Source: Geobacter metallireducens GS-15 (GTDB lineage Bacteria; Desulfobacterota; Desulfuromonadia; Geobacterales; Geobacteraceae). From it: a DNA stretch of 32,000 bases. The notes below the pieces were generated by a model, which worked only from the letters and a program-made list of their open reading frames with translations, ran no database searches and was not told where the DNA came from. Made by a program: the position numbers and the translations under genes. The DNA lies in contig NC_007517.1 of the NCBI RefSeq assembly GCF_000012925.1, positions 1,740,001 through 1,772,000 of the forward strand, in the 5' to 3' direction. This document shows, piece by piece, positions 6,336 through 30,071 of this stretch (its first letter is position 1; the number at the start of each line of letters is the position of its first letter).

Positions 6336-6399
6336 GGTGCACCTCCCTGATTGACAAAGGGTATGCTGCTGAACCGAACGTGCTTTCTAGTAGAGCATT

Positions 6400-8691: not shown

Positions 8692-8724
8692 GTAATTGTT
8701 GGTTGCCGCCTGTAGCCTAAATCA

Positions 8725-9372: not shown

Positions 9373-9408
9373 GATGTCTCTCCCCGGCCCCATGGCCGTC
9401 AGGTCGCG

Positions 9409-9834
9409 TCAGTCGCGAAACGTGGCGTGGCATTCGTTGCACTTCTCCTCGGCCTTCTTGAAGGCAGTCTTGGCGCCAGCAATATCTCCCTTTTTCGCCA
9501 AGGCCACCGTTGCCGTTACCTTCGAGCCGAAGTCATCAGCGATTTTTTTGAATGTGTCAATCTTCTTCAGATTCTTGTGGGGCTTCGCTTTCTTCAGATC
9601 GGGAATGGTCCCGGCCATTTCCCCCGCCTCCGCCTCGACAGTCGTGGCATCCCCTTTCTCCAGGGCGCCGTTGATCTTAGTCTGGGCCTCGGCATACATG
9701 GGCATTATCCGGTGGAGTTTGTCCATCCTGGTGTCACGGTGTTTCTTCCCGTGCATCTCGCCTCCGTGAGCGAGAGCTCCCCCCTGTGTCAGCAGAAGAA
9801 TGCACGCCGCCAGCATTGTTGCTTTCTTCATCAT
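9409..9834 (-). CDS. Periplasmic class II cytochrome c (cytochrome c'/c556-like four-helix bundle)
   Basis: It has the signal peptide MMKKATMLAACILLLTQGGALA, an Ala/Lys-rich helical body, and a single CNECH haem-c motif a few residues from the C-terminus. GGAGA lies 8 nt upstream of the ATG. Confidence 0.75.
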   Translation of the reverse strand: MMKKATMLAACILLLTQGGALAHGGEMHGKKHRDTRMDKLHRIMPMYAEAQTKINGALEKGDATTVEAEAGEMAGTIPDLKKAKPHKNLKKIDTFKKIADDFGSKVTATVALAKKGDIAGAKTAFKKAEEKCNECHATFRD

Positions 9835-9856
9835 TCGTGTTCTCTCCTGAATCGTA

Positions 9857-10762: not shown

Positions 10763-10776
10763 AAGGCACTCCCGGT

Positions 10777-10810
10777 GGAAAAAGGGGCAACCGGATAACC
10801 GGTCACCCCT
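10777..10810 (-). terminator. Intrinsic terminator/attenuator hairpin after the Met/His-rich protein gene
   Basis: The minus-strand RNA is AGGGGUGACCGG-UUAU-CCGGUUGCCCCU followed by UUUUCC: a 12-bp stem (two G-U pairs), a tetraloop and a U-tract. It ends only about 15 nt before the ATG of the next gene (10762). Confidence 0.6.
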
Positions 10811-10835
10811 GGTGCCGACTTGACGCCGATCTTTC

Positions 10836-11318
10836 TTACTTCACCACGTACCAGAACTTGGCACTTCTCACCTTGCCGTCGGCCAGCTTGAACTTGGCCA
10901 TGACGCCGTACTTCCCCTTTTTGGAGAGGTCGAAATCGGCGCCGAAATGTCCTTGCATCGCCATCAGGTCCTTGACTTGCTCGGACTTGTTGGGGCCTTG
11001 GACTTTGACCTTCACCTCTCCTTCGGTAATCGCCTTGCCGCTCTTCGCATCCTTGAACTCAACGGCGATGTGGTGGGTCTCCTTCATCCCCTTCGGCATC
11101 TCCATCTTCATTCCCTTCATGTGCTCGGCCATGCTCATCACCTTGAAGGTGACCTTCACCCCGTCCACCACCTCCTGGTGGGCGACGTCACCCCCGTGAT
11201 CCATCTTCATTGAACCGTGGTCCATCTTCATGGAGCCGTGATCCATCTCCGCGTGGGAAACAAGGGGGGCCGCCAGGGCAAAGGTTGCCACTGCGATGAC
11301 TACTGGCAATTTCTTCAT
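10836..11318 (-). CDS. Periplasmic Met/His-rich metal-binding protein (candidate CusF-like Cu/Ag chaperone; possibly YtkA/FixH-like Ig fold)
   Basis: It has the signal peptide MKKLPVVIAVATFALAAPLVSHA. The mature N-terminus is EMDHGSMKMDHGSMKMDHGG, and further Met/His motifs follow (MAEHMKGMKMEMPKGMKETHH). It lies directly after cusA with a strong SD (AAGGAGAAG). The fold assignment is a guess. Confidence 0.6.
   Translation of the reverse strand: MKKLPVVIAVATFALAAPLVSHAEMDHGSMKMDHGSMKMDHGGDVAHQEVVDGVKVTFKVMSMAEHMKGMKMEMPKGMKETHHIAVEFKDAKSGKAITEGEVKVKVQGPNKSEQVKDLMAMQGHFGADFDLSKKGKYGVMAKFKLADGKVRSAKFWYVVK
11191..11250 (-). repeat. 21-nt in-frame tandem repeat (about 2.7 copies) encoding MDHGSMK
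   Basis: The coding strand reads atggatcacggctccatgaag / atggaccacggttcaatgaag / atggatcacggggg. The two full copies differ only at three synonymous positions. Confidence 0.9.
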
Positions 11319-14300: not shown

Positions 14301-14533
14301 TGGGGCAGCCCCTGGAGGTTTACGGCCAGGGGATAGGTCACCTGGTCCTCCACCACCTGCGGCGAGCGTCCCGGATATTCGGTGAAGACGATCACCTGGT
14401 TGTCGGAGAGGTCGGGAATGGCGTCAACCGGCGTCCTGTAGACCGCCCATACCCCCGCAGCCACAATCAGGGCGAAGATCATGATGATAATGATGCGATT
14501 TCTCGCGGAGTAGTCGATGATTTTCTCAATCAC
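11396..14533 (-). CDS. cusA: Heavy-metal efflux RND pump, CusA/CzcA family
   Basis: 1045 aa. The N-terminus MIEKIIDYSARNRIIIIMIFALIVAAGVWAVYRTPVDAIPDLSDNQVIVFTEYPGRSPQVVEDQVTYPL closely follows the E. coli CusA pattern, and size and layout are RND-like. The GTG start has GGAGG 6 nt upstream. Confidence 0.92.
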   Translation of the reverse strand: MIEKIIDYSARNRIIIIMIFALIVAAGVWAVYRTPVDAIPDLSDNQVIVFTEYPGRSPQVVEDQVTYPLAVNLQGLPQVRAVRASSAFGFSMIYVIFEDKADIYWARTRVLERLNYAASLLPPNVRPTLGPDGTGVGHVFWYTLEGKGYDLEQLRTLQDWFVRYQLNTVPGVAEVASIGGYVREYQIDLDPNRLFAYNVKVDQVMEAVKRSNNDVGGRLMEQADAEYLIRGKGYIKSPKDLEDIVVGADMRGTPVYVKNLGTVQLGGAIRRGLLDMNGEGEAVGGIVVMRYGENAKDVIDRVKEKIKSLEQGLPPGVKIMVSYDRSDLIMRAIDTLKHSLLEESVVVSLVILAFLLHFQSSLVIVLTLPIAVLISFITMKLMGVTSNIMSLGGIAIAIGVLVDAGVIMVENCYRHLSELPPEERKEKRLEVIITSAKQVGRAIFFSLAIIVLSFVPVFLLEGQEGKMFHPLAFTKTFSMVGSAFIAITLVPVLMFFFMRGKMPPESSNPVSMFFIRLYSPVIRWVLKWKKTTIALNLVALAIAIPMFMTLGSEFMPPLDEGSLLYMPVTLPNISITEAKRLIQVQDTVIKSVPEVEHVLGKVGRAETSTDPAPVSMFESIIILKPKEKWRAGVTKADIVSELDAKLQQIGVRNGWTQPIINRINMLSTGVRTDLGVKIFGNDLNVLKDLAVQAEGILKTVPGAADVVAERVTGGNYIDIDIDREAAARYGVNVGEIQDVIETALGGEMLSTSVEGRNRFPIRIRYMRDYRDNIPAIQRILVGGMEGAQVPLSLVTKLKVSTGAPEINSEGGLLRSIVFLNVRGRDMGGFVGEAKTVLEKNLKLPAGYYVAWSGQWENQVRAKQRLQILVPAGMLIIFILLYFTFHSALEASMVMLSVPFALVGGVYLVKALGYNMSVAVWVGFIALYGIAVETGVVMVIYLHEALDKKLINGPCTEQDIYDATFEGAVLRLRPKLMTVAVALIGLIPIMWSSGTGADVMKPIAAPMIGGMISSAIHVLIMTPVIFVLMKKHDLKKGKLKYSGMKH

Positions 14534-14571
14534 AGTGAACCTCCGGGACCGGCGTCCGGTCCCTGATCAAA

Positions 14572-15972
14572 TTACATTTTCATATCACCCATATCCATGC
14601 CGCCCCCCTTCTTCTGGGGAGGAGCGGACGGCGTGTGCCCTTCATGACCGGCCGGGGGAGCCGGAGCGCCTTTCTCCTCCATCTTCATCCCCGGCATGCC
14701 GGCATGGCCGCCGCCAGTCCCTTTCAGCTGCGCTTCGGAGTCGATCAGGTACCCGCCCGATGCCGCAACCTTTTCGCCTGCCTTCACCCCGGAGAGCACC
14801 TGGAGCATGTCCCCCACCCGGGCGCCCACCTTCACGTCCCGGGGCTCGAACATTCCCGGCTTCATCTCAACCCATGCTACCTGCCGCTTACCGGTGTCCA
14901 TCACTGCGGCCACCGGCACGGTCACGGCGGTGCCGAGCGGCACCTTGACCGACGCGTTCACGAACATGTCCGGCTTGAGCTTCAGGCCTGGATTGGGAAG
15001 TTGGACCCGCACCTTGACCGTCCGGGTCTTGGGGTCGAGGAAGGGGTAGACGAACGACACCCGACCCGAGAAGGTCTTACCGGGATAAGACTGGGAAACG
15101 ATGTCGACCCGCTGGCCGAGCTTTATGAAGGAGAATTCGTTTTCGTAGACCTCCACGTCCACCCAGACGGTGGAGAGGTCGGCGATGTTGAAGAGGGGAT
15201 CCCCCGTGTTCACGTACTGCCCCTCAATGGCGATCTTCTCGATCACCACCCCCGAGAGGGGGGTGTAAATAGGAAGACGGATATTGGGACGACCGGCCTT
15301 CTGAAGCCCTGCGATCTGGTGCTCCTTTACCCCCATGAGGAGGAGCCGCTGCCGGGCCGAGGCCACGAGCCCCTCTCCCCCCTGGGAGATGGAGGCAATG
15401 GGGGAGTCCTTGAACCGGTCGCGGCTCTTCAGTGCCAGGAGGTATTCCTGCTGAGCGGAGACGAGATCGGGCGAATAGACCTCGGCCACCGGTTTTCCCT
15501 TGGACACATAGGCGCCAACGGTGTTGACGTAGAGCCTGTCAATGCGGCCCGCCACCCACGCGGTGACCTTCGCCTGCCGGGACTGGTCGTACTGCACGAT
15601 GCCGACAGCATTCACCTCCTTGGTGAGGGGCATCGTCTTTGCCTCAACGGTGGCAACATTGGCCATCACCTGCTGGGAAGGCGAGAGGGAAACATGCTCG
15701 AGCATGGCCATTTCCTTGGCATCTGCCTGGGCGCCTTCCACTTTTTTGATGAGCTCCATCCCGCAAATGGGGCAGGTACCGGGCTTGTCCTTGATGATGA
15801 AGGGATGCATGGCGCAGGTGTAGAGCACCTTCCCCTGGGCGGCCTTTTCCCCCTGTTTTGCTCCTGTTGCGGTCTCCGCCTTCTGGTTGTGCCACAGGTA
15901 GTACCCCCCGCCGCCTGCCGCGGCCAGGAGAACCACTGCCACCGGAACTGCTACCTTTGCACTCAATTTCAT
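14572..15972 (-). CDS. cusB: Efflux RND periplasmic adaptor, CusB-like, with N-terminal heavy-metal-binding zinc-ribbon motif and Met/His-rich tail
   Basis: It has a signal anchor, the motif YTCAMHPFIIKDKPGTCPICGMEL, an HlyD/CusB-like body, and the C-terminal tail HAGMPGMKMEE...GGGMDMGDMKM. It sits between cusC and cusA. Confidence 0.88.
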   Translation of the reverse strand: MKLSAKVAVPVAVVLLAAAGGGGYYLWHNQKAETATGAKQGEKAAQGKVLYTCAMHPFIIKDKPGTCPICGMELIKKVEGAQADAKEMAMLEHVSLSPSQQVMANVATVEAKTMPLTKEVNAVGIVQYDQSRQAKVTAWVAGRIDRLYVNTVGAYVSKGKPVAEVYSPDLVSAQQEYLLALKSRDRFKDSPIASISQGGEGLVASARQRLLLMGVKEHQIAGLQKAGRPNIRLPIYTPLSGVVIEKIAIEGQYVNTGDPLFNIADLSTVWVDVEVYENEFSFIKLGQRVDIVSQSYPGKTFSGRVSFVYPFLDPKTRTVKVRVQLPNPGLKLKPDMFVNASVKVPLGTAVTVPVAAVMDTGKRQVAWVEMKPGMFEPRDVKVGARVGDMLQVLSGVKAGEKVAASGGYLIDSEAQLKGTGGGHAGMPGMKMEEKGAPAPPAGHEGHTPSAPPQKKGGGMDMGDMKM

Positions 15973-16045
15973 GATCGTACCTCGCGGTTTATGGAGAATA
16001 GTTCAATGCATAGCATCTACAGGGCGCGCACGCCGGGAAAGCCCA

Positions 16046-17326
16046 CTACTCCTGCAATTCCTTGCCGACCAGGGCCTCAAGCTGGGCGAGGCGCATCTGG
16101 TACTCGGCCAGGGATTCGTAATAGTCCCGTTCGTAGTTGAAGAGGGTCAGCCGGTTGTCGAGGAGCGTAAGGAAGTCGACCTTGTTTACCCGGTAGCCGA
16201 TGGTGGCGGATTCCAGCGACTGCTCCGCCTGGGGGATGATGCCGGTGCGGTAGAGCTTGGCGAGCTTCTCACGCCGCTCCAGCTGGGCCAGGCTGTCGGC
16301 GATGCCGAGATTGATGCTGTTGTTCAAGGTATTCAATTCTGCCGTCGCCATGGCGATCTCGGCCGACGACTCCCGGACCATGGCATGGCGCCGTTCCCGC
16401 TGGATCGGGAGATTGAAGGTGAGGCCAGCGCTGTACATGTCGTACCCAGCCTCCATGTCATTGATGGGATCCCGCTGCATATATTCGAAGGAGAGATTAA
16501 CGTCAGGAAAATACTCTTTTTCCGCCAGACGGTGTCCGGCTTCACCCTTCTCGATCTCGGCGCGCAGACTCTTGACCAGCGGCCGGTTCTCCTGCGCCAT
16601 GGAGCGGAGTTGGTCGGGGGACCAGGTAAAGGGCTTCAGTTCGAAGTCGGCAACTTTTCCCACCGGCGTTTCGGCGGGGCGGTAGAGCAGGGTGTTCAGG
16701 GTGGCCTGGAGGCTCTTTCGCTGCTGTTCCAGGGATATCTTCATGTCGACCATCTTCGAACGTTCAACCTGGGCCTTGAAGACGTCCTGCTGGGCCCCCT
16801 GGCCCACGGAGTATTTCGTTTCGGCAAGGGCGATGAAGTCATCCATGATCCGGATATTCTTCTCGACGATCTGCAACTCCTTGTCGGTCAGAAAGATTTG
16901 GTACCAGGTCTCCTTCACCATCCGGGCCAGTTCCAACTTCCGCTCCGCCACCTGCCACTTGAGCGCCTCGGCCTCCCTCGACGCCACCTCGGCCTTCAGG
17001 TCCCGCTTCCCCCAGAAGGGGAGTTGCTGCGAGATGCCGATCACCCGCTGGCTCATGGGATCACGCCGGGAATTGAAGGGATCGCGGATCAGGAAGCTCT
17101 GCATCTTGAGCATGAGCATCGGATCGTCAAGGGCACCCGCTTGGGCCACGCGGTTGCGGAACATCTCCCAACGGGCCTCGGACGCCTTCACCTCGGGATT
17201 GTTGGCGAGGGCAGCATCGACAAGCTGAGGGAGATTTTCGGATGGTTTTGTTTCCTCGGCCGGTGCCTGGTACGGAAGCGCCAGCACCGCGAGAAGCATG
17301 AACCCGATTGCGAGACGTGATTTCAT
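16046..17326 (-). CDS. cusC: TolC-family outer membrane efflux protein, CusC-like
   Basis: It shows the outer-membrane-efflux repeat architecture. The signal peptide MKSRLAIGFMLLAVLALPYQAPA starts at the ATG at 17326, preceded by AGGAGA. The track ORF extends to 17383, but those extra 19 aa lack signal-peptide character. Confidence 0.85.
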   Translation of the reverse strand: MKSRLAIGFMLLAVLALPYQAPAEETKPSENLPQLVDAALANNPEVKASEARWEMFRNRVAQAGALDDPMLMLKMQSFLIRDPFNSRRDPMSQRVIGISQQLPFWGKRDLKAEVASREAEALKWQVAERKLELARMVKETWYQIFLTDKELQIVEKNIRIMDDFIALAETKYSVGQGAQQDVFKAQVERSKMVDMKISLEQQRKSLQATLNTLLYRPAETPVGKVADFELKPFTWSPDQLRSMAQENRPLVKSLRAEIEKGEAGHRLAEKEYFPDVNLSFEYMQRDPINDMEAGYDMYSAGLTFNLPIQRERRHAMVRESSAEIAMATAELNTLNNSINLGIADSLAQLERREKLAKLYRTGIIPQAEQSLESATIGYRVNKVDFLTLLDNRLTLFNYERDYYESLAEYQMRLAQLEALVGKELQE

Positions 17327-17439
17327 GGGGTCTCCTGGAGGTTGTAGATAGTTATGACTATCCATTTGCCGTGCCAAAAGCAAATTGGCTGATTTTACGG
17401 CTTATATTCAACTTGTGCCGCTTGTTCGATGGCGAGCAT

Positions 17440-17478
17440 GCAGAATATTCGACAGCAGCATCAGAATATTCTCTACTG
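17440..17478. promoter_or_regulatory. Two AGAATATTC boxes (candidate operator/UAS) upstream of cusC
   Basis: gCAGAATATTCgaca (17440-17454) and tCAGAATATTCtctactg (17461-17478) are spaced 21 bp start to start. The core GAATATTC is palindromic. The reverse complement of 17463-17476 is GTAGAGAATATTCT, identical to 28571-28584. Confidence 0.5.
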
Positions 17479-17775
17479 TCGTGGCTAGTTCACTCTAGTT
17501 TTTATCGGCGAGTTTTTAATTAATTTTAGTTGTTTTGTAAAAAAATTTTTCCATTTGGCAAAGTAGAGACAAGAGCGCGGTGCAATCACTTGCTGCCAAT
17601 CTGGATGATTTGCATCTGCATATCCATCCCTGCCTTCATGGCGGTGATGTTGGCCTCGTAGGCCCGGGTTAGGGCGGGACGGATCCGCCGATACGGCTCT
17701 AACCTGTTAAATAATGCCACTTCATTTCTTGTTGTCAATGTGTCTGGCAGATGTAAGTGCCTAACATTACGCCTG

Positions 17776-18186
17776 TTATTGCATGAGGAACCAAAGGAGC
17801 GGAAACAGCTGGTCCGGTTCGTAGGGTTTGTGAACTATACCCGACGCACCTGCCATTGCTGCTTTTTTCCCGAAATCTTCGGGCGGGTCGGCGACACCGA
17901 GAATAACTAAAAGGCTGGGCTGATTCTCGAGCGCTGCACGGGTCAGTTCGATCCCGTCCATATCGGGAAGCAGGGCATCGGCAACTAGGACTTTCCATGG
18001 TTCATCTTTAAGCACCAAGAGCGCCTCTTCGCCGTTTTCCACGCGGGTAACCCTCAAACCGTTACGAATTAGCAACGACTCAATGGTGGCGCACTGCTTC
18101 CCTGCGGTCACGAAAAGAAAGTCGCCGCTCTCTGGCCAGGTCTCTTTCGAATTCATTTCTTCTCTGTTGTGGGCCAAATTCAGCAT
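17776..18186 (-). CDS. Single-domain response-regulator receiver protein, probably degenerate (pseudo-receiver)
   Basis: By-eye alignment to CheY shows the phospho-Asp (VLVADALLPDMDG) and the Lys (VHKPY) present. The beta1 acidic pair is replaced (FLFVTAGKQ) and the conserved Thr/Ser is replaced by Gly (LVILGVA). Its ATG overlaps the TGA of the ABC ATPase gene by 1 nt. Confidence 0.7.
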   Translation of the reverse strand: MLNLAHNREEMNSKETWPESGDFLFVTAGKQCATIESLLIRNGLRVTRVENGEEALLVLKDEPWKVLVADALLPDMDGIELTRAALENQPSLLVILGVADPPEDFGKKAAMAGASGIVHKPYEPDQLFPLLWFLMQ

Positions 18187-18851
18187 CAGATCACCCTCCC
18201 GTCCCGAATGTGAATTGTCCGGTCGGTGTACTGGCAGTTTTCCGGGTTGTGGGTCACCATCACCACGGTCTGACCCTCGTCGTTCAGTTCCCGAAAAAGG
18301 GCCATGACCGCCTCGCTGTTGGCGGTATCGAGGTTGCCGGTGGGCTCGTCGGCAAAGAGGATGTGGGGGCGGTTGACGATGGCGCGGGCGATGGCCACCC
18401 GCTCCTGTTCGCCACCGGAGAGCTGGTTCGGCAGCCGGTCCGCTTTGCCGCCGAGCCCGACCCGTTCCAGGGCCTGGAGGGCCGCTTGCCGTTTCTCGTC
18501 GCCCTTCAGGGACGCGATGGTCAGGGGGAGCATGACGTTCTCCTGGGCCGTGAGATAGGGGATCAGGTGGAACGACTGGAAGACGAAGCCGAAGTTCCCG
18601 GCCCGAAAATCGGCCAGCCGCTCCTCTCCCAAGGCGTAGAGGTCGGTTCCGTTGACCGTCACCTTGCCGCTGGTCGGGTGGTTCATGCCGCCGAGGATGG
18701 AAAGAAGGGTGCTTTTCCCTGACCCCGACTGTCCCATAATGGTGATGAACTCGCCGGTCTCGATGCCGATGTCGACCCCCCGCAGCGCCTCCACCGTCTC
18801 ATCACCGCAGGAGTAGTGCTTGGTTAGATTACTGATCTCGATGAGTGCCAT
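18186..18851 (-). CDS. ABC transporter ATP-binding protein, MacB/LolD/FtsE-like
   Basis: Walker [10 protein letters not shown], signature LSGGEQERV, Walker B ILFADEPT. 221 aa, with no fused permease. Confidence 0.9.
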
Positions 18852-18906
18852 GGTTAAATACTCCGTTATTCTCGTTTGTCCGGTCCCTAGTCCCCGGTCC
18901 CCGCTG

Positions 18907-20067
18907 TTACAGTGCCCGCAGGGCTTCCGTGGGGTCCATACGGCTGGCGTGGAGTGCCGGATAGAGGCTCGCTAGGAGCCCCACCGTCACGGCGAGGCCG
19001 ATGGAGCCCGACGCCACCAGTCCGTCCCAGACAAGGGCCGCTTTGGCAGACTCGGCCATGAAGGGGAGGGCGAGCCGGGCCGCCCCCATTCCCGAAAGAT
19101 AGCCCAACGCGCCGGCCAGCAGGCTCACCAGGGACGCCTCCAGGAGGATGATCCGCATAATGTGGCTCTTTCTGAAACCGATGGCCCGGAAGACGCCGAT
19201 CTCGGTGGTCCGCTCGTTGACGCTCCCCATCATGGTCACGAAGACGATAAGTGAGCCGATGAAGATCACCACCCCGGCGACCCCGTAGGAGAAGCGCTTG
19301 AACTGGTCGAGGGTCTTGAGCCGCGACTCCACCACCTGCTGAATGGCGGTGACCTTCGCCTCCGGAAGCTTCTCGGCGATCTGGACGACCATGTCGCCGA
19401 TGGGGCAACCGGCGCAGAGCGCCGCCACTTCCACAAGCGTGATCTTGTCCTCCTTGCCGAGGATCTTCTGGGCCTTTTTCAGGGGCGCGAAGACCAGCGA
19501 GTCGTCCTGGGAGCCGGTCTGTTCCAGGATTCCCGCCACCTTCAGGGCCTCGCCCCCGATGGTCACCGAGTCGCCGGGGGAGAGGTGGAGCGTGTCGGCG
19601 GTGGTGCTGCCGAGGAGGATTTCGTTCTCAGTCTTCGGCTCGTCGCCGAAGATCCGCCACCACTGCTTCATCTTGAGCTCTTCCGCGAAGTTAACCCCCA
19701 CGAGGAGAACGTTTTTCTCCTTCAGAGTCGCCGCACCAAGCACCTTGGGAGAGACCGCGAGGATGTTTTTGTTGTTTTTGATCTCTCGGATTCTCGCCAG
19801 GTCCCCCTCATGGATCTCCTGCTGGTCGAAGCTTACCCGGCCGAGGCTGATGCCGCCGTAACTCATGGCCAAGTCCTCGCTTCGGGGCATGATGAGGATG
19901 TTGGCGCCGAACTCGTCCATCTTGCGGCCGATGTCGTTGGACATGGATTCGGTGAGGGTCACGAGCGTGACGATGGTGGCGATGCCGACCATGAGGCCGA
20001 TGGTGAGAAACGCCATCTTCGCTTTGCGCCGCCGCAGGTTATTGAGTGATATGGAGTGGAGTTTCAT
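18907..20067 (-). CDS. ABC transporter permease, FtsX/MacB-type with large periplasmic loop
   Basis: 386 aa. It starts MKLHSISLNNLRRRKAKMAFLTIGLMVGIATIV (typical MacB/FtsX TM1), followed by a roughly 200-aa extracytoplasmic segment and three C-terminal TM helices. Confidence 0.85.
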   Translation of the reverse strand: MKLHSISLNNLRRRKAKMAFLTIGLMVGIATIVTLVTLTESMSNDIGRKMDEFGANILIMPRSEDLAMSYGGISLGRVSFDQQEIHEGDLARIREIKNNKNILAVSPKVLGAATLKEKNVLLVGVNFAEELKMKQWWRIFGDEPKTENEILLGSTTADTLHLSPGDSVTIGGEALKVAGILEQTGSQDDSLVFAPLKKAQKILGKEDKITLVEVAALCAGCPIGDMVVQIAEKLPEAKVTAIQQVVESRLKTLDQFKRFSYGVAGVVIFIGSLIVFVTMMGSVNERTTEIGVFRAIGFRKSHIMRIILLEASLVSLLAGALGYLSGMGAARLALPFMAESAKAALVWDGLVASGSIGLAVTVGLLASLYPALHASRMDPTEALRAL

Positions 20068-20091
20068 GGTATCGATGCCTCGCCGGTCCGA

Positions 20092-20637
20092 TTAGAAATA
20101 GCGCGCTCCCTGCTGGAGATCGGAAGCCTTTACGATGATGTTCCTGCCGTCGCTGGTGGCGGGGAGGTACGAGGGATTGCAGCCGCCGACGGAGTGGGGG
20201 CCGATCCGGTTGATTTGGAACTTCTTGCCGCAGTTCTTGCACAGCATGGTGTCGCCATCTTGGACATACCCCTTCTTCTCCCGGAAGCAGACGTCGCAGG
20301 AATCAAAGGCGGTGTGAAACTGGCCGTCGCTTCCCTTCACCACGAGAAACCTGATCTCCTTGCCGCCCTCGGTGTAGCGGTAGAAGTGGGCGCTGCCGTC
20401 GGAAACTTTGGTCAATGGAATTGCTACCGTGCCGTTGACCGCCTTTACCTTCTCGACGCCGGACAAGCCGGGGAAATTGAGGGCAAACACCGTAGCTACC
20501 CCGGCCAGTAGTGCCCCTGCCACCAGAATTCCCCATTTGAAACCCTTCTTCGCTGCTTTCACGTTTACCTCCTCGCCCTCGGGCTTATTGATGGTTTCGA
20601 CCTGTCTATTTTCTTTTTCTCTCATTTTCTTCCCCAT
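20092..20637 (-). CDS. Membrane-anchored Cys-cluster protein, DUF2318-like
   Basis: It has one N-terminal TM helix (WGILVAGALLAGVATVFAL). The soluble domain carries CDVCFREKKGY...CKNCGKKF...GGC, the conserved Cys pattern I associate with DUF2318. Confidence 0.65.
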   Translation of the reverse strand: MGKKMREKENRQVETINKPEGEEVNVKAAKKGFKWGILVAGALLAGVATVFALNFPGLSGVEKVKAVNGTVAIPLTKVSDGSAHFYRYTEGGKEIRFLVVKGSDGQFHTAFDSCDVCFREKKGYVQDGDTMLCKNCGKKFQINRIGPHSVGGCNPSYLPATSDGRNIIVKASDLQQGARYF

Positions 20638-20639
20638 GG

Positions 20640-21059
20640 TCAGTTCCTTTCCGGCTTCTTGGACTTGTCACAGCAGCCACAGCCGCCACTGCGGGCCTGG
20701 GTGGGGCCGCTCATTCTGGTTTTCTCCCGGTAGCTATCGGCGCTCATGGTTTCCTGAACGGTGCTCTGGTACCCTGCATCGCTTACCGTTGCCGCCAGCT
20801 TCTGGGGGGTGGCCGTGTTGTCATGCCAGACCGATACCAGGCCAGCCTCAATGTTGACATCCACGGAAGCAACCCCCGGCACCGTTTCCAGAGATTTGGT
20901 TATCTTCGACACACAGCCGCCGCAGGAGATCCCAGTGGATTTCAGCTCCGTCACCGCCTCCGGTGAGCCTGATGAAAGCGCCGCTCCCGCACCAAGGACA
21001 ACTCCCAGCGCCGCCACCATCACCAGCCGAAAAATTTTAGATATCTGTCCTCGTCTCAT
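20640..21059 (-). CDS. Signal-anchored heavy-metal-associated (HMA) domain protein with Cys-rich C-terminal tail (copy 2)
   Basis: MRRGQISKIFRLVMVAALGVVLGAGAAL is followed by an HMA fold with the variant metal loop GISCGGCVSKI and the tail SGGCGCCDKSKK. The ATG at 21059 has GGAG 7 nt upstream. The 223-aa track ORF is an unsupported N-terminal extension. Confidence 0.8.
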   Translation of the reverse strand: MRRGQISKIFRLVMVAALGVVLGAGAALSSGSPEAVTELKSTGISCGGCVSKITKSLETVPGVASVDVNIEAGLVSVWHDNTATPQKLAATVSDAGYQSTVQETMSADSYREKTRMSGPTQARSGGCGCCDKSKKPERN

Positions 21060-21084
21060 ATGTATCTCCTTTCCCGAATACATC

Positions 21085-21513
21085 CTATATTGCATTACCG
21101 CAGCCGCCGGAGTCGCAACCGCCAGTGCCGCACCCACCGGACCGGACCACCTTCGCACCGAAATCCCGACCCGTAACCCGCCGGAAATCGGCGAGCGACA
21201 TCTGCTCCATGAGCCAGCTCTGAAATCCGGCCTTGCGGACCGCTCCGGCAAATGTCTCCGGATTGGCCGAATTGGTGTCGTACCCCACCAGAACCCACCC
21301 GCCCTTGACATCCACCTCGACCCCCGCCACCCCTTTCATCGGCTTGAGGGCCTTTTCTATCTTGCCGGCACAGCTGCCGCAGGTCATCCCGACGGTCTTG
21401 AGGGCCGCCACTGCGTTGGGGATAGGCGCAAGCCTGACGTTGAAGGCGAGATACACGAGAAGCCCCACGGCGCATGCCACCAGGATTCCGGTTCCTACTG
21501 TTCTTTTTCGCAT
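21085..21513 (-). CDS. Signal-anchored heavy-metal-associated (HMA) domain protein with Cys-rich C-terminal tail (copy 1)
   Basis: MRKRTVGTGILVACAVGLLVYLAF is followed by the canonical loop GMTCGSCAGKIEKAL and the tail SGGCGTGGCDSGGCGN. The ATG at 21513 has AGAGGAA upstream. It is a paralogue of the downstream gene, including the shared linker M-S-x-A-D-F/Y-R. Confidence 0.8.
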   Translation of the reverse strand: MRKRTVGTGILVACAVGLLVYLAFNVRLAPIPNAVAALKTVGMTCGSCAGKIEKALKPMKGVAGVEVDVKGGWVLVGYDTNSANPETFAGAVRKAGFQSWLMEQMSLADFRRVTGRDFGAKVVRSGGCGTGGCDSGGCGNAI

Positions 21514-21974
21514 GGTCAATTTCCTCTGACTCTCATCTCTTTCGCCGTCTGCCTTCGTCTGTACAGTCGAATACAAAAGCTGGGCCAATTGTAAAACTAC
21601 CTGAAATTACATAAAAAATGCCTAAATGTTATCGTTGCGGTAATTAAATGTGAGGAATAATCAACAGCACACTGTCTGATATTAGTCATGAATTGAGAGC
21701 GTAAATCAATCTTTGCAATAGTAAGCATACGAAGGCAACGGCTTGCTATAAAACTGTAGGTAAACTTTCCTGCAGAAGTCGATATAAGTTGTTGCAGAAA
21801 ATTCAACAACCGTTGTGGGATATTCCCTAATAAGTTGATTGCATAGATAATGTTATTTAAAAAAACCTTGCGATCTCGAAGTGTTAAGCAATGGCCCACC
21901 ATTTGCTAGGTACGGTACAATATTTCACGTCTTGGAGGTTTTCTGGTGCTTCTCCTGGCGGTGGAATTATATTG

Positions 21975-22015
21975 GGCGCACTCTTTGACTCCTCCTTCGG
22001 AGTGCGCCGTTTTTT
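21975..22015 (+). terminator. Intrinsic terminator with no annotated gene upstream on its strand
   Basis: GGCGCACTC (21975-21983) pairs perfectly with GAGTGCGCC (22000-22008) across a 16-nt loop, followed by gTTTTTT (22009-22015). The U-tract is on the plus strand only. Confidence 0.6.
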
Positions 22016-22095
22016 ATGCATCCATCAGGCAACGAAATGATTTTACATAGAGGCTCAGCGCCAATACACCACGCCCTGAAACAAAGGAGATTAAT

Positions 22096-22269
22096 ATGGG
22101 AAAAGTTGTTCTGATGCTCGCGATTACGGGAACTGTCGCGCTTCTGTCCGGATGCGCCGTTATTGATTTTCTCGACGGCAAGCATTTCGACAACACAACC
22201 GACTACGAAAGGCCCCAATACAACTCGGGAAGCTATGATAGCGGTCATGGCGGGGGACACTCACACTGA
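22096..22269 (+). CDS. 57-aa mini-lipoprotein with His-rich C-terminus (…SGHGGGHSH)
   Basis: AAAGGAGA lies 6 nt upstream of the ATG. The sequence is MGKVVLMLAITGTVALLSG|CAVIDFLDGKHFDNTTDYERPQYNSGSYDSGHGGGHSH, with a classical lipobox. It is too short for the ORF track. Confidence 0.6.
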   Translation: MGKVVLMLAITGTVALLSGCAVIDFLDGKHFDNTTDYERPQYNSGSYDSGHGGGHSH

Positions 22270-22290
22270 ATGAGAAAGGAGAATGCGGAA

Positions 22291-22482
22291 ATGAACGTTC
22301 GAGCTGAAGAGGTATCGTCAGGAATGCTGAGCAAGATGTTCTTTTTCAAGTTTACGGTTCTGACATCGCTGGTTCTTGGGTTGACGCTGGCTCATCCGAC
22401 AGCCACGATTGCCCACAAGGGGGCACAGAAACTCTGCTCGATCTTGATGCAGAATAATAGTGACTGCCAAAAGGCTTGCTGA
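22291..22482 (+). CDS. Small secreted three-Cys peptide (hypothetical)
   Basis: AAAGGAGAA lies 7 nt upstream of the ATG at 22291; alternative ATGs are at 22270 and 22324. The sequence is ...[52 protein letters not shown], with a hydrophobic signal-like segment and a Cys-containing tail. The start and the coding status are uncertain. Confidence 0.4.
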
Positions 22483-22514
22483 CAGCGCGAAAATTAAAGA
22501 GACGAGGATACTCT

Positions 22515-22664
22515 ATGAAAGCACTTCTCTTTTCGGCACTCATCATCGGCGCGTTTCTGACATCGGGATGCATGATGCTCATGCCGGGAGACCACATGGG
22601 ACACCATGGTGCACAGGACGAAGCGGCGGAGCGGCAGACCGGCAGCGGTGGTCACTCCCACTGA
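22515..22664 (+). CDS. 49-aa mini-lipoprotein, Met/His-rich, C-terminus …SGGHSH
   Basis: [18 protein letters not shown]|[31 protein letters not shown] has a lipobox, and GAGG lies about 9 nt upstream. It shares the G-G-H-S-H end with the ORF at 22096. The track ORF begins 13 codons earlier. Confidence 0.6.
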
Positions 22665-22699
22665 CAACCACAATGACTCAACAAAAGGAGCAGGGGCAC

Positions 22700-23629
22700 A
22701 TGGCACAAATTTACGAGAATCTTACTGACCTGATCGGCAAAACTCCGTTGCTGAGGCTTCGCAAAGTGGCCGCGGGAATCGAGGCAGACATTGTAGCGAA
22801 GCTGGAATCGTTCAACCCCGGCGGCAGCGTCAAGGACCGGATCGGCGTGTCCATGATCCGTGATGCCGAAGGGAGGGGACTCATCAACAAAGATACGGTC
22901 ATTATCGAGCCGACCAGTGGCAACACCGGCATCGCTCTGGCCTTCGTCTGCGCGGCAAGAGGATACCGCCTGGTCCTCACCATGCCCGATACCATGAGCG
23001 TCGAGCGGCGCAATCTCCTGAAGGCCTACGGCGCCGAACTGGTTCTCACCCGGGGGGCGGAAGGGATGAAGGGTGCGATCAATAAAGCCGAGGAACTGGC
23101 CGCGGATATCCCCAACTCGTTCATACCCCAGCAGTTCCGGAACCCGGCTAACCCCCACATCCATCGTTTCACCACCGCTGAGGAGATCTGGACGGACACC
23201 GACGGCAAAGTCGACGTTTTCGTGGCCGGCGTCGGAACCGGCGGAACCGTGACCGGTGTCGGCGAGGTGCTCAAAAAGAGAAACCCGGGGGTGAAAATCA
23301 TCGCCGTGGAGCCGTTCGATTCACCGGTCCTTTCCGGCGGCCATCCCGCCCCACACAAAATCCAGGGAATCGGCGCCGGTTTCGTGCCGGAGGTATTGAA
23401 CCGTGAAGCCATTGACGAAATCTTCACGGTGAGAAACGAGGAGGCGCTGGAAACCGCCCGCCGTCTGGCCCGAGAAGAGGGGCTGCTTGTGGGGATCTCC
23501 GCGGGAGCGGCGGCTTTCGCCGCCCTGGAGGTGGCGAGGCGTCCCGAAAACAAGGGGAAGAGAATTGTTGTTGTCCTTCCCGACACCGGAGAGCGGTATC
23601 TCAGTACCGTTCTTTTCCAGGATCAGTAG
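22700..23629 (+). CDS. cysK: Cysteine synthase A (O-acetylserine sulfhydrylase)
   Basis: [23 protein letters not shown]..., the PLP-Lys motif NPGGSVKDR, the loops TSGNTG and GVGTGGT; 309 aa. AAAAGGAG lies upstream of the ATG at 22700. The 389-aa track ORF is an in-frame upstream extension. Confidence 0.92.
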
Positions 23630-23685: not shown

Positions 23686-24264
23686 ATGAACCGTCTTTTC
23701 ATTGTTGTAGTGATGCTCCTGGCTCCGCTTTCGGCGTGGGGCGAACTGGAATTGCCGGTAAGCGGTACAGTCACTTCCGGCGTGGGGTGGCGTGTAGACC
23801 CGTTCGGCAGTAGCAGGCTCGTTTACCACCGGGGTATCGACATCGCTGTCCCGGTCGGCACGCCGGTTCGGGCAACCCGTGGAGGACGGGTCATTCATGC
23901 TGGTCTGCATGGCGGCCATGGGCTGGCCGTCATAGTCGAAGACGACAGCGGCGGCAGGACACTCTACGGGCATAATTCCGAACTTGTCGTCCGGCCGGGA
24001 GAACGGATTGAACCTGGTGAAGTTATCGCGCGGTCAGGGAACTCGGGCAGATCAACGGGGCCCCACGTCCATTACGAGGTGTTGCGCGACGGCAGAGAAA
24101 CAATCACTGTGGCACGGGCCGACGAGGAGCTTCCCCGGCCAGCAAAAGCTGATGGAGGCCTTCGACGGCAACAGGAGCAGCGGATGGACGAGATTGTGAA
24201 TTCCATTCTGCGCGGGATCGGTTCAGCAGGAGATGGGCAGGGGGGAGGCGAACCCAATATGTAA
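23686..24264 (+). CDS. Secreted M23/LytM-family metallopeptidase
   Basis: It has a signal peptide (MNRLFIVVVMLLAPLSAWG), the HxxxD motif (YHRGIDI) and the HxH motif (GPHVHYEV). Confidence 0.85.
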   Translation: MNRLFIVVVMLLAPLSAWGELELPVSGTVTSGVGWRVDPFGSSRLVYHRGIDIAVPVGTPVRATRGGRVIHAGLHGGHGLAVIVEDDSGGRTLYGHNSELVVRPGERIEPGEVIARSGNSGRSTGPHVHYEVLRDGRETITVARADEELPRPAKADGGLRRQQEQRMDEIVNSILRGIGSAGDGQGGGEPNM

Positions 24265-24328: not shown

Positions 24329-25282
24329 ATGAAGAAATCTTATCTCATACATGGGGCAAAGGGCAGGGTCGTCATCTTGGTTTTATTGACGGCTGTTATC
24401 GCCTTGTTCCATTTTGTCGTGCCGACCGAGTCTCACGTCTATCATGCGCTGCATATCGTACTCCGTAAGCTCTACTTCCTCCCTCCTGTAATGGCAGGTG
24501 CCTGGTTTGGCCTAAGGGGTGCTGTCTACACGACATCGGCCGTCACAATCCTTTTTTCCCTCCATGCTTTTCTCGACTGGCCGGGGAACTACATGGAGCA
24601 GGCCAACCAGATGGGGGAACTTGCCAGTTTCTGGGTAGTAGGGCTTGTCTCCGGCTGGCTCTTCGACCGGCAGCGGGCACTTCTCGCGGAGCTTGCCACG
24701 GCCAACGAAGAGACACTCCTGGCTCTCGTTTCGGCCCTCGACATGAGGGCAAAAAACAGCCGGCTCCATTCCCTGCGGGTACGGGAAATTGCCCTCCGTC
24801 TTGCTGACCATCTGGGTGTAACCGAAAATGAAAGAAAGGCGATAGGATTTGGTGCGTTGCTGCACGAAGTGGGAAAAGTTTCAATTCACGATTCCGTGTT
24901 TACCCTCTTAAAACGGGTCGGTCTCCCGGAATTAGAACTGAAGGAAATGCGCTCGTACCCCGAAGCGGGGTATAATTTACTGCGGAAAATCGGTTTTCTC
25001 CGTGAAGCGGCAGAGATCGTCCGTGCCCACCAGGAACATTTCGACGGAAGCGGCTACCCACGCGGCCTCAGAGGGGAGGAGATTCCGCTTGGTGCAAGGT
25101 TGCTGCTGATTGCAGACACTTTCGAGAAACTCATTACCGGCATCGGTGCCGTTCAGTGCGAGGAGGCTGTCAGAATTATTCGGGAAGGTTCAGGAGGAGA
25201 ATTCGATCCGGGACTCGTGGACCTCTTTACGGGAATCGGTTGCGACGAATTGAGCCACGTGGCGAGCGCGAAAGATGAGTAG
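24329..25282 (+). CDS. Membrane-anchored HD-GYP domain protein (variant catalytic motifs)
   Basis: The N-terminal roughly 120 aa hold several TM helices. The C-terminal domain reads HSLRVREIA...LLHEVGKV...HQEHFDGSGYPRGLRGEEIPLGARLL. GYP is intact, but HD reads HE and HHE reads HQE. Confidence 0.8.
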   Translation: MKKSYLIHGAKGRVVILVLLTAVIALFHFVVPTESHVYHALHIVLRKLYFLPPVMAGAWFGLRGAVYTTSAVTILFSLHAFLDWPGNYMEQANQMGELASFWVVGLVSGWLFDRQRALLAELATANEETLLALVSALDMRAKNSRLHSLRVREIALRLADHLGVTENERKAIGFGALLHEVGKVSIHDSVFTLLKRVGLPELELKEMRSYPEAGYNLLRKIGFLREAAEIVRAHQEHFDGSGYPRGLRGEEIPLGARLLLIADTFEKLITGIGAVQCEEAVRIIREGSGGEFDPGLVDLFTGIGCDELSHVASAKDE

Positions 25283-25444
25283 TCGGAACCCGGGTATGCA
25301 TGGATTGAGCAAATTGCCGCGGTCATTCACGCTATAGTTACTGACAATGCATGTTCAGGAAGGTGCTTAAGGAGGGAGGTGATACCAAGGGGATGACGGG
25401 TGTTATTCGGTTGTAGATCATTTAAACAAGAGAGGAGAATGAAG

Positions 25445-25813
25445 ATGAGAAGAATTGCTGTCGTATTTGGAATGTTCGCCCTTTCGCTTGTGGTGTTCGC
25501 CTCTTTCTCAGCCGGGGCTGCAGACAAGAAAGCGAAGAGTGAAGTGGTGATGAAGGTGGGTAACAAGGTCCATCTCTTTCACAGCGGCACTGCCGACGTA
25601 AAAAAAGAGATCTGCCCGAACGACGTGATTACCGTCTACCGGGAGATTGGTGGGGCCAAGAATCCCAAGTCAATTGAAGTTGGGCAGGTCAAAGTGCTTT
25701 CGTACGTTAGTGCTCACTACTTTGAGGCCGAAGTGGTCAAGGGAGAGGTGAAGCCTGGCGACATCGCCATGAAAGAATCGGCTGCCTGCCTGATTCAACC
25801 TGTGAAACACTGA
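25445..25813 (+). CDS. Small secreted protein, unknown family (paralogue A)
   Basis: It has the signal peptide MRRIAVVFGMFALSLVVFASFSAGA. GGAGA lies 6 nt upstream of the ATG at 25445, and an ATG at 25439 is also possible. It is alignable by eye with 26103-26429 (…VYREIGG…VGQVKVLSYVSAHYFEAEVVKGEVKPGD vs …VYRYTGL…VGKVRITGYAGEHHLEGVVVEGNIQGND). Confidence 0.7.
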   Translation: MRRIAVVFGMFALSLVVFASFSAGAADKKAKSEVVMKVGNKVHLFHSGTADVKKEICPNDVITVYREIGGAKNPKSIEVGQVKVLSYVSAHYFEAEVVKGEVKPGDIAMKESAACLIQPVKH

Positions 25814-26102: not shown

Positions 26103-26429
26103 ATGGGAACTTTTAAAAGGTTAGCCATTGGCGTAATAGTCCTTGTACTTCCGTTGCTGATGACCGCCTGTATTGGCCCCAGAGCGACAGTCACGGTTAT
26201 TGCCAAACCGGGGGATACCGTTCAGCTTCTTCATCCGGGGCCAAAGGCCGCTAAAGAGGAGTTTTCTCACAATGAGATCGTCCCCGTCTATCGGTACACT
26301 GGACTCAGGAAGTACGGGGGCTACAAGGAAGTGGGAAAGGTCAGGATTACAGGTTATGCAGGGGAACACCATTTGGAAGGAGTGGTGGTCGAAGGAAATA
26401 TCCAGGGCAACGATTTCGTAGAGAAGTAA
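26103..26429 (+). CDS. Small lipoprotein, unknown family (paralogue B)
   Basis: GGGAGGG lies upstream of the ATG. It has the lipobox LLMTA|C and is a paralogue of 25445-25813. Confidence 0.7.
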   Translation: MGTFKRLAIGVIVLVLPLLMTACIGPRATVTVIAKPGDTVQLLHPGPKAAKEEFSHNEIVPVYRYTGLRKYGGYKEVGKVRITGYAGEHHLEGVVVEGNIQGNDFVEK

Positions 26430-28619: not shown

Positions 28620-28826
28620 CATAAACTGGTGTGTATTACGGTTGTTTGTGCCGTAAGTAATTTATAAAGTAGGTCAAAAATAACTTGCCTTTCTTTGTGA
28701 AAAAATTTAGAAGGGAGTCAAGATATTGTTGACATAATTGGTGATAAAAAGGCGCTGTTATTTTGCGGCTGGTTCGATGTGACTTACTTCGCGTGGCCGG
28801 GAATGATGGCAAGGGGAAAAACGAAT

Positions 28827-30071
28827 ATGGCGCGGGATTTTCAGCTCGACACCCTCTTGATTCACGGCGGCCTTGAACCCGGCCCTGCTGGGGCCACGAC
28901 GGTTCCCATCGTCCAGTCTTCCTCCTTTGCCCACGAAACCGCCGAGGATCTGGAGGACATCTTCCGGGGCCGCAAGGCGGGGCATGTCTATACCCGGATC
29001 AACAACCCGACCACCGAGAGTCTGGAGCGCCGGTTGGCGCTGCTGGAAGGGGGGATCTCGGCCATTGCCACCTCCTCGGGGATGGCGGCCATCACTCTGG
29101 CGGTGCTGTCCATCGTCCGCTGCGGCGACGAGATCCTCTCCTCGGCATCCCTCTTCGGCGGCACCTTCTCCCTCTTCCGCGACACCCTCTCCAACTACGG
29201 CATCGCCACCCGTTTCGTGGATCCGAGTGATCTCGCCGCAATGCGGGCCGCAGTCACCGAGCGAACCCGTCTCATCTTTGTGGAGACCATGGGGAACCCG
29301 CGGCTCGACGTCCCCGACCTGGCGGCCCTGGCTGCGATCGCCCGGGAGGCAGGTGTGCCCCTCGTAGTGGACGCCACCGTCACCACGCCAGTACTCGGCA
29401 GGGTGAAAGAGCTGGGGGCCGACATTATTGTCCACTCCACCAGCAAGTACATCAACGGCACCGGCAGCGCCATCGGCGGGGCCATCATCGACTGCGGCAC
29501 ATTTGACTGGCGGCGGGAGAGCTATCCCCACTTCGAGCCGTACGTGAAGAAGTTTCGCCAGTTCGCCTTCTCCGCCCGTGCCCGAAAGTTGATCCACAAA
29601 GACCTCGGCGCCTGTCCCGCTCCTATGAACTCATACCTTCTGTCGGAAGGGATCGAAACCATGGCGCTGCGGATGGAGCGCAACTGCGCAAATGCCCAGC
29701 GCCTGGCGGAGTTCCTGGCCGCCCACCCCAAGGTGGCGTGGGTCAACTATCCCGGCCTCACCAGTTCGCCGTGGCACGAAACGGCTAAAGCGCAGTTCGG
29801 CGGCCGCTACGGCGCGCTTCTGACCTTCGGCCTTGCTGACAAGGCTGCTGCCTTCCACTGCATCGACGGCCTGCGGCTGGCCAAGAATCTGGCCAACATC
29901 GGCGACACCAAGACTCTGGTGATTCATCCCGCCAGCACCATCTGCGCCGATTTCGGCCCCGAGGAGAAGGCTCTCATGGGAGTGAGCGAGGAGATGATCC
30001 GCGTCTCCGTCGGCATCGAGGCCATCGACGACATAATCGAGGACTTTGCGGAGTCCCTCAACGCTATATAG
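28827..30071 (+). CDS. metY: O-acetylhomoserine sulfhydrylase (aminocarboxypropyltransferase), MetY/Met17 family
   Basis: MARDFQLDTLLIHGGLEPGPAGATTVPIVQSSSF..., the PLP-Lys region HSTSKYINGTG, and Cys/Met-metabolism PLP enzyme length. The ATG at 28827 fits the family N-terminus; the track ORF starts 16 codons earlier at a GTG. Confidence 0.88.
   Translation: MARDFQLDTLLIHGGLEPGPAGATTVPIVQSSSFAHETAEDLEDIFRGRKAGHVYTRINNPTTESLERRLALLEGGISAIATSSGMAAITLAVLSIVRCGDEILSSASLFGGTFSLFRDTLSNYGIATRFVDPSDLAAMRAAVTERTRLIFVETMGNPRLDVPDLAALAAIAREAGVPLVVDATVTTPVLGRVKELGADIIVHSTSKYINGTGSAIGGAIIDCGTFDWRRESYPHFEPYVKKFRQFAFSARARKLIHKDLGACPAPMNSYLLSEGIETMALRMERNCANAQRLAEFLAAHPKVAWVNYPGLTSSPWHETAKAQFGGRYGALLTFGLADKAAAFHCIDGLRLAKNLANIGDTKTLVIHPASTICADFGPEEKALMGVSEEMIRVSVGIEAIDDIIEDFAESLNAI

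Follow-up and report, generated by a model that had tools for sequence, protein, structure and literature searches.

In Geobacter metallireducens GS-15, three very small open reading frames (ORFs), here ORF1, ORF2 and ORF3, precede the cysteine synthase gene cysK in a stretch of 32,000 nucleotides (nt) that also carries a large metal-resistance cluster (the window: assembly GCF_000012925.1, contig NC_007517.1, forward-strand positions 1,740,001 to 1,772,000; Table 1). An original prediction, made from the letters of the DNA alone, read them as membrane-tethered metal-binding mini-peptides co-expressed with cysteine synthesis, a compact unit for periplasmic metal buffering and thiol supply. All three are genuine genes, under purifying selection along their whole length, and what is widely conserved is the ORF1-ORF2 pair rather than a linkage to cysK. 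They represent three peptide families without a name, a domain model or a literature: uncharacterised small envelope proteins, restricted to the Geobacteraceae and probably of the metal-handling accessory type. That general concept is already known; the unusual traits are the extreme shortness of the peptides, the predicted lipid anchoring and invariant H-S-H end of ORF1 and ORF3, and the pairing of ORF3 with cysK. With a probability of about 0.5, we read the peptides as periplasmic copper ligands that would buffer metal for, or relay it to, heavy-metal-associated (HMA) proteins, a Cus-type pump and an ATP-binding cassette (ABC) module resembling the Fet system of Campylobacter jejuni, with the ORF3-cysK pair adding cysteine.

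Three families of small envelope peptides

Each of the ORFs is preceded by a Shine-Dalgarno motif (AAGGAG, AAGGAG and GAGGA, respectively) 6-9 nt 5' of its start, as the original prediction had it, and the lipoboxes, mature lengths and GGHSH ends that it described for ORF1 and ORF3 are all present in the sequence. The precursor of ORF1 reads MGKVVLMLAITGTVALLSG before the predicted cleavage point and CAVIDFLDGKHFDNTTDYERPQYNSGSYDSGHGGGHSH after it. For the middle ORF, correctly described as a signal-like segment plus a tail with three Cys, there are two candidate ATG starts, at 22270 and 22291; because homologues and database entries begin at 22291, this conserved position is taken as the start.

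Lipoboxes were assessed with a PROSITE-type rule that we coded ourselves (a positive n-region, an h-region and [LVI][ASTVI][GAS]C with the Cys at 15-35). The rule is matched by 13 of the 1622 start-to-stop candidates of the window, among them ORF1 (K3, LLSG-C20) and ORF3 (K2, LTSG-C19). Both products are thus predicted to be cleaved by signal peptidase II and lipidated. The mature part of ORF1 would contain four His and five Asp in 38 residues, and that of ORF3 four Met and five His in 31.

The alignment of ORF2 shows a charged n-region and an h-region of 13-15 residues. Pro at -6 and the Ala(-1)-His(+1) pair never vary, while -3 is occupied by T, S, I or M. All 15 sequences fit the -3/-1 rule for a cut after Ala41, which would make His42 the first residue of a 22-residue peptide; the product may be this free peptide or an uncleaved membrane anchor. 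The last 22 residues hold one His, one Met and three Cys. An N-terminal His of the mature protein also serves as a ligand in the copper sites of CopC, a parallel to the predicted His1 of ORF2.

Sequence conservation was assessed by homologue searches and by substitution patterns. For ORF1 we found 17 homologues in databases and 20 loci in genomes, the latter exclusively from Geobacteraceae. Its invariant residues are G19, C20, V22, D24-K29 (DFLDGK) and the C-terminal GGHSH, while S18, A21, I23 and H30 are conserved in at least 90% of sequences. In ORF2 the residues A41, H42, Q46, C49, M53, C59 and C63 are invariant, giving the pattern Cys-x3-Met-x(4-5)-Cys-x3-Cys. Homologues of ORF3, found at 10 distinct loci, retain G-C-M, M23, H27, G29, H31, H47 and H49, with G-C invariant. 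Potential metal ligands are therefore conserved in all three mature parts, in line with the metal-binding role originally proposed: His and Asp in ORF1, His, Cys and Met in ORF2, Met and His in ORF3.

The original prediction had tied its case to conservation of the reading frames at the protein level, and such conservation is what we find. Median ratios of non-synonymous to synonymous substitution rates (dN/dS), calculated with our own Nei-Gojobori script, are 0.20 for ORF1 (20 sequences), 0.21 for ORF2 (15) and 0.26 for ORF3 (6), and in each of them codon position 3 varies most. Taken with the synteny described below, these data rule out chance ORFs. It had also been supposed that annotation routinely misses such ORFs. 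This is true of many ORF3 copies, which are not called as genes in several source metagenome assemblies and were recovered from the DNA, but all three G. metallireducens ORFs are already present as proteins in NCBI nr. A metagenome scan with a four-sequence ORF3 alignment produced two loci.

None of the three peptides has a Pfam match (E <= 0.01), an NCBIfam match (E <= 1) or a relative in the PDB, and in Pfam and NCBIfam they match no CusF, CopK, PcoE/SilE, CopC, HMA or YHS/TRASH family profile. A search of 1.84 billion representative proteins with an ORF1 hidden Markov model returned nine clusters, the most distant of which keep the lipobox, a start like (A/T)(V/A)(I/L)D...DGK and the terminal H-x-H; with so few clusters, ORF1 has no distant relatives to draw on. 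Profile-profile comparison relates ORF1 to ORF3 with 91% probability; in the alignment FLDGKH pairs with LMPGDH, and the GGHSH ends fall together. ORF3 may therefore be a Met-rich paralogue of ORF1, although this is a weak hint since the shared signal peptides add to the score. Literature searches on Geobacter copper, cysK and locus tags near Gmet_155x-156x produced nothing on these genes.

Table 1. Features of the window discussed in the text, with coordinates as window positions.
Feature	Position	Strand	Remarks
ORF1	22096-22269	+	57-residue lipoprotein precursor (predicted); lipobox LLSG-C; mature 38 residues, CAVIDFLDGKH...GGHSH
ORF2	22291-22482	+	63-residue precursor; Sec-type signal or anchor; predicted 22-residue mature peptide
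ORF3	22515-22664	+	49-residue lipoprotein precursor (predicted); lipobox LTSG-C; mature 31 residues; C-terminal GGHSH
cysK (O-acetylserine sulfhydrylase A)	22700-23629	+	309 residues; TIGR01139, PALP domain
Secreted M23 (LytM-type) metallopeptidase	23686-24264	+	192 residues; Peptidase_M23 E = 4.6e-28
Sigma-54-type -24/-12 element	21892-21907	+	TGGCCCACCATTTGCT; about 190 nt 5' of ORF1
Stem-loop and T-run	21975-22015	+	GGCGCACTC, 16-nt loop with CTCCTCCTT, GAGTGCGCC, G, TTTTTT
Membrane HD-GYP protein	24329-25282	+	HD_5 E = 2.2e-32; HFDGSGYPRG motif
Conserved secreted protein, about 124 residues	25439-25813	+	...KSEVVMKVGNKVHLFHSG...VKGEVKPGDIA...
Divergent operon: two membrane-anchored HMA proteins, FtrD-like/DUF2318 protein, FtsX/MacB-type permease, ABC ATPase, stand-alone receiver	17776-21588	-	Pfam, NCBIfam
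Membrane-anchored HMA proteins	21085-21588 and 20640-about 21060	-	GMTCGSC motif; CopZ/MerP-like
CusCBA-type heavy-metal RND (resistance-nodulation-division) system: CusA/CzcA-family pump, HMBD adaptor, outer-membrane factor	11396-17383	-	Pfam, NCBIfam
Four genes between regulator and RND pump	8725-11318	-	222-residue C-terminal-YHS protein, cytochrome c'/b562-like, Germane-domain lipoprotein, 160-residue weakly YtkA-like
Benzylsuccinate synthase cluster bssDCABE	1122-6335		Glycyl-radical enzyme 2442-5030, activase 5289-6335, AAA chaperone-like 1122-2021
XylR-type sigma-54 activator	6931-8691		More probably serves bss genes

Gene order in the Geobacteraceae

Across about 20 species-level loci (labelled L001 and so on), the peptide genes are syntenic with genes for HMA, FtrD-like, FtsX, ABC, YHS and HD-GYP proteins. 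A YHS/TRASH protein of about 49 residues usually precedes ORF1-ORF2, and in most loci a secreted protein of about 120 residues, whose copy in the window is the one at 25439-25813, is encoded directly 3' of ORF2. The most constant neighbour of ORF1 is the gene for the membrane HD-GYP protein, which adjoins it, usually divergently, in most loci. Again in most loci, the HMA proteins, the FtrD-like/DUF2318 protein, the FtsX/MacB-type permease and the ABC ATPase are encoded a few kb upstream; this module is syntenic with ORF1 in L001, L005, L007, L008, L010-L012, L015, L017, L019-L021, L026 and L028.

The linkage to cysK that was originally proposed holds in part. It is strong for ORF3, which is followed directly by cysK, some 35-45 nt away, in nine of its 10 distinct loci, L010 being the sole exception; in the window the gap is 35 nt, as stated in the original prediction. 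ORF1 and ORF2, in contrast, are followed by cysK only in the clade of the window (the window itself, L001, L003, L005, L013, L023, L026, L028 and L029), and at least 12 loci have ORF1, mostly together with ORF2, but no cysK within the up to about 5 kb retrieved downstream of ORF1. The M23 gene that follows cysK in the window does so also in L001, L013 and L026. The cysK product itself is canonical, scoring 481 bits against the CysK equivalog model TIGR01139 (cut-off 351).

The intergenic gaps from ORF1 through ORF2, ORF3 and cysK to the M23 gene are 21, 32, 35 and 56 nt, and a consensus scan of the + strand from 22016 to 23629 found no intrinsic terminator, in agreement with the original prediction for the stretch before cysK. 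Because the gaps are so tight and no terminator is predicted, a single transcription unit is favoured.

This layout bears on one alternative, that the small ORFs are leader peptides controlling cysK through attenuation at Cys codons. Three Cys codons do lie near the end of ORF2, upstream of cysK. Against this, ORF1 and ORF2 are kept in the 12 or more loci that lack cysK, ORF3 intervenes between ORF2 and cysK, and neither terminator nor antiterminator was found between the peptide ORFs and cysK. Furthermore, export signals are present in all three ORFs, and purifying selection acts over the whole length of each. We consider attenuation by leader peptides effectively refuted by the synteny data.

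Several further observations concern the loci as a whole. In some of them a SAM (S-adenosylmethionine)-dependent methyltransferase of 191 residues, absent from the window, is encoded between ORF2 and ORF3 (L001 6425-7000, L026 7412-7987, L023 about 5130-5733, and the gap at 2378-3001 in L028); its matches to arsenite-methyltransferase models are weak and below the cut-off. Tn7-like TniQ/TnsD genes directly adjoin the cluster in one of the related loci, and no plasmid match to the cluster was found, whether by DNA or by protein. The 124-residue secreted protein matches no Pfam or NCBIfam family, and its single-sequence AlphaFold2 model, with a pLDDT (predicted local distance difference test score) of 41, is unusable for a fold search.

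A putative promoter and a conserved hairpin

Upstream of ORF1 lies a candidate -24/-12 element of the sigma-54 type, with canonical GG/GC spacing (TGGCAC-N5-TTGCW). It is the single match to TGGYN7TTGCW in the 32-kb window, where about one is expected by chance, and is weak evidence alone; the element is, however, conserved in the corresponding position of L001, L003 and L026, with variable bases separating GG from GC. In both L001 and L026 the RND outer-membrane gene is separated from the receiver gene by a receiver-sigma54-helix-turn-helix activator gene and an OsmC gene, and neither of these two is present at that point of the window (17383-17776).

Between this element and ORF1 is a stem-loop followed by a run of T, which we found 5' of ORF1 in 19 distinct loci (for example L001 5869-5912, L026 6871-6915 and L015 4931-4975) and in two tandem copies in L009. 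RNAalifold gives a 10-bp stem in which two pairs are changed on both sides, and the conserved loop carries CYCCTT, resembling an anti-Shine-Dalgarno sequence. In most loci the hairpin ends 12-38 nt before the ORF1 start, overlapping or following the 3' end of the YHS gene. Because it sits so close 5' of ORF1, ORF1 must be transcribed through it. In form it resembles a terminator or an attenuator, and we take it to be a terminator that is leaky or conditional. Its identity as a CsoR-like DNA operator was also considered and is unlikely, given that the loop ranges from about 12 to 23 nt and the T-run invariably follows. No Rfam family reaches the gathering threshold anywhere in the window, and an E-value scan of 21600-22720 gave only sub-threshold noise (for example Pseudomon-1/ErsA, E = 4.6). 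The fold of the whole leader RNA is no better than that of shuffled sequences (z = -0.64).

A possible role in periplasmic copper handling

The metal served by the neighbourhood is probably copper (or silver). In the window this is suggested by the Cus-type pump with its HMBD adaptor and by the CopZ/MerP-like HMA proteins, and more widely by the YHS proteins. Geobacter soli has a CopA-like P-type ATPase with YHS and HMBD at its locus, along with a VKOR-thioredoxin protein. In L010, ORF1 and ORF3 have as neighbours (5641-8756, - strand) the genes for a twin-arginine (Tat)-signal multicopper oxidase and an outer-membrane efflux protein, together with that for a 124-residue lipoprotein. The last of these, with a Met/His/Asp-rich tail (DEDMRMDDMRMDD...NHGSHGEGG), may be a further candidate copper-binding lipoprotein. 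The metal-cluster context invoked in the original prediction is thus borne out in that the surroundings are consistently metal-related. The RND cluster, however, is not among the constant partners, which are the HD-GYP, YHS, HMA and Fet-like ABC genes.

In the window the HMA, DUF2318, permease and ATPase genes span 18186-21588 on the - strand, the Fet-like parts matching PF10080, PF02687 with PF12704, and PF00005. At least the first of the two HMA proteins has a Cys/Gly-rich C-terminal tail, GGCGTGGCDSGGCGNAI, which is unusual for CopZ/MerP-like domains.

On the favoured reading, ORF1 and ORF3 would be exported, cut by signal peptidase II and tethered by the lipidated Cys to the membrane leaflet facing the periplasm, as short and probably disordered peptides. 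ORF1 would supply Asp and His ligands and ORF3 Met and His, each with an invariant H-x-H terminus. Cleavage of ORF2 by signal peptidase I would free some 22 residues, starting with the invariant His. Together the three might capture periplasmic copper and either pass it to the HMA proteins, the Fet-like module and the Cus pump, or buffer it for them. In the G. metallireducens clade the sigma-54-type promoter would drive ORF1, ORF2, ORF3, cysK and the M23 gene as a single unit, and the ORF3-cysK pair could provide additional synthesis of cysteine, and hence thiol, under metal stress. The originally proposed combination of metal-binding peptides and thiol supply is plausible and partly supported.

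Several findings weigh against this reading. FetABCD, the best-characterised relative of the ABC module, is tied to iron uptake, and its biochemical role is unknown (PMC10783030). Literature searches gave no reports of expression, lipidation or metal binding for the three peptides. The terminator-like hairpin lies between promoter and ORF1, so that expression may be low or conditional, and no gene for an enhancer-binding protein adjoins the operon in the window, unlike in L001 and L026. In G. soli, ORF1 (L026 6990-7160, and likewise L027) has an in-frame TAG after ...DGKHFDHTTDY, although the codons beyond it are still recognisable (RPQYNSGSYGGGLGGGHSH) and ORF2, ORF3, cysK and the M23 gene are intact in the two assemblies. 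Since the stop lies amid an otherwise intact operon, ORF1 appears dispensable in that species, where it looks like a recent pseudogene or a gene with a truncated product. Finally, the conserved ten-residue block of ORF1, CAVIDFLDGK(H), has the look of an epitope for docking to a protein rather than of a loose site for metal.

A block of this kind is typical of a protein-protein interface, and the partner could be either a sensor such as the HD-GYP protein or a MacB/Lol-type transporter. In the first case the peptides would be signalling or regulatory partners, ORF1, ORF2 or both docking on the HD-GYP phosphodiesterase, or on a sensor of the sigma-54 pathway, and tuning cyclic di-GMP or transcription under envelope or metal stress. 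Lipoproteins do act as co-sensors elsewhere, NlpE with CpxA and RcsF with IgaA being examples. The constancy of the HD-GYP gene as a neighbour of ORF1 favours the idea, as does the N-terminal membrane domain of its product, in which Pfam reveals no obvious sensor domain. In L001 and L026, however, the HD-GYP gene is not beside ORF1, and both the HMA/YHS context and the conservation of His, Cys and Met suit direct metal chemistry instead. We regard a signalling role as unlikely.

In the second case the MacB/Lol-type ABC transporter would have the peptides as its substrates or as accessory subunits, and might expel ORF2, with or without metal, or handle the mini-lipoproteins. MacB-type pumps act on periplasmic substrates, small Cys-rich peptides for example, and the window ATPase and permease score best in NCBIfam, though below the cut-offs, against LolD/MacB and LolC/E/MacB, respectively. 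For the related FetBCD transporter, moreover, no substrate is known (PMC10783030). On the other hand, the peptide genes and the ABC operon are divergently oriented, and the operon is several kb away, or absent within 5 kb, in L009, L014, L016, L018, L024 and L025. We consider a role as transporter substrate or subunit rather improbable.

The coincidence of a small secreted Cys peptide, small lipoproteins and an FtsX-type ABC transporter might equally bring to mind a bacteriocin or toxin peptide with its immunity lipoproteins and exporter. Yet ORF2 has no double-glycine leader, its hydrophobic N-terminal segment being Sec-like, and, apart from the generic SAM-dependent methyltransferase in L001, L026 and L023, no peptide-modification family occurs among the scanned neighbours. 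These are instead consistently metal-handling (HMA, YHS, Cus, CopA-like and multicopper oxidase), and a bacteriocin system is accordingly very improbable.

Relationship to known systems

The closest parallel to the ORF3-cysK arrangement comes from the RicR copper regulon of Mycobacterium tuberculosis, where lpqS, encoding a putative lipoprotein, is cotranscribed with cysK2 and lineage-specific small ORFs, socAB, also occur (PMC3944814). The cysK2 gene is strongly induced by copper and recurs in Actinomycete copper loci, and homologues more than 50% identical to CysK2 are reported from Actinomycetes alone (bioRxiv 10.64898/2026.04.16.718964). Both systems thus place a putative lipoprotein gene directly 5' of a co-oriented cysteine-synthase gene in a copper locus, and both include lineage-restricted small ORFs, but the match is one of arrangement and does not imply homology. 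They belong to different phyla, CysK2 forms a distinct clade confined to actinomycetes while the window encodes a canonical CysK (TIGR01139), and control is by the RicR repressor in the one and apparently from a sigma-54-type promoter in the other. Convergence most likely accounts for the resemblance between LpqS and ORF3.

CusF, PcoE/SilE, CopK and CopC, small periplasmic proteins that bind copper or silver, are likewise encoded in resistance operons next to efflux systems, and have Met/His patches like that of ORF3. The Geobacter peptides differ from these in showing no sequence relation, in being far shorter (22-38 residues when mature), and in that two of them have predicted lipid anchors and invariant H-S-H ends. 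In size and lipobox, ORF1 and ORF3 resemble the entericidins EcnA/B, OsmB and Lpp-type proteins, with precursors of 40-60 residues and a classical lipobox. These, however, have no sequence similarity to ORF1 or ORF3, are not linked to metals and lack conserved His, Met or Cys motifs.

The neighbours of ORF1 and ORF2 find a counterpart in the fetMP-fetABCDEF genes of C. jejuni, in which FetA combines DUF2318 with YHS and FetBCD is the ABC part whose substrate is unknown (PMC10783030, PMC6083913). A DUF2318 protein, an FtsX-type permease, an ABC ATPase and a YHS domain are shared with FetABCD, and the VKOR-thioredoxin protein close by in G. soli recalls FetE/F. There are also clear differences. 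Among the window ORFs scanned with Pfam, none matches FetM (Ftr1-type) or P19, and a 173-residue protein of L005 has only a weak, sub-threshold match to Iron_transport; membrane-anchored HMA proteins stand in their place. The YHS domain is here a separate protein of about 49 residues, encoded upstream of ORF1 and putatively cotranscribed with it, and mini-lipoproteins or Cys peptides are not described for Fet systems.

The copper reading can also be put in a more specific form, in which the Cys3 peptide of ORF2 with its N-terminal His and the H-x-H-terminated ORF1 and ORF3 would form a previously unrecognised copper relay, acting as physiological ligands or substrates of the Fet-like module, and the ORF3-cysK pair would have arisen convergently with that of mycobacteria. 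So specified, the idea is tentative, and we think it unlikely. If it were true, the peptides would be candidate substrates for Fet-like ABC modules and would offer a first handle on their transported cargo. The pairing of ORF3 with cysK, independent of lpqS-cysK2, would support extra cysteine synthesis as a general, selectable defence against copper. If the peptides bind copper, the periplasmic metal ligands known so far would be joined by a new type that is very short, tethered by lipid and terminated by H-x-H. Small envelope peptides are under-studied, and copper handling in Geobacter is of practical interest given the use of these bacteria in metal bioremediation and their formation of Cu2S nanoparticles. 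We expect the impact to be moderate, since the family is limited to a single bacterial family and the general concept is known.

Wider setting of the window

With the benzylsuccinate synthase cluster and the adjacent activator (1122-8691), the window falls within the G. metallireducens island for toluene degradation. An O-acetylhomoserine sulfhydrylase gene at 28779-30071 fits the description of Gmet_1566 (PMC2700814). The 167-kb stretch Gmet_1435-1572 has G. sulfurreducens orthologues for only 19% of its genes (PMC1924859), and because such orthologues are so few in this region, the cysK of the window is probably an accessory island copy. The metal cluster may also extend to the four genes that separate the regulator from the RND pump. 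Downstream of the cluster, at 26103-26429 on the + strand, is another small lipoprotein ORF of 108 residues, with MGTFKRLAIGVIVLVLPLLMTA ahead of its lipobox Cys, that belongs to no Pfam family.

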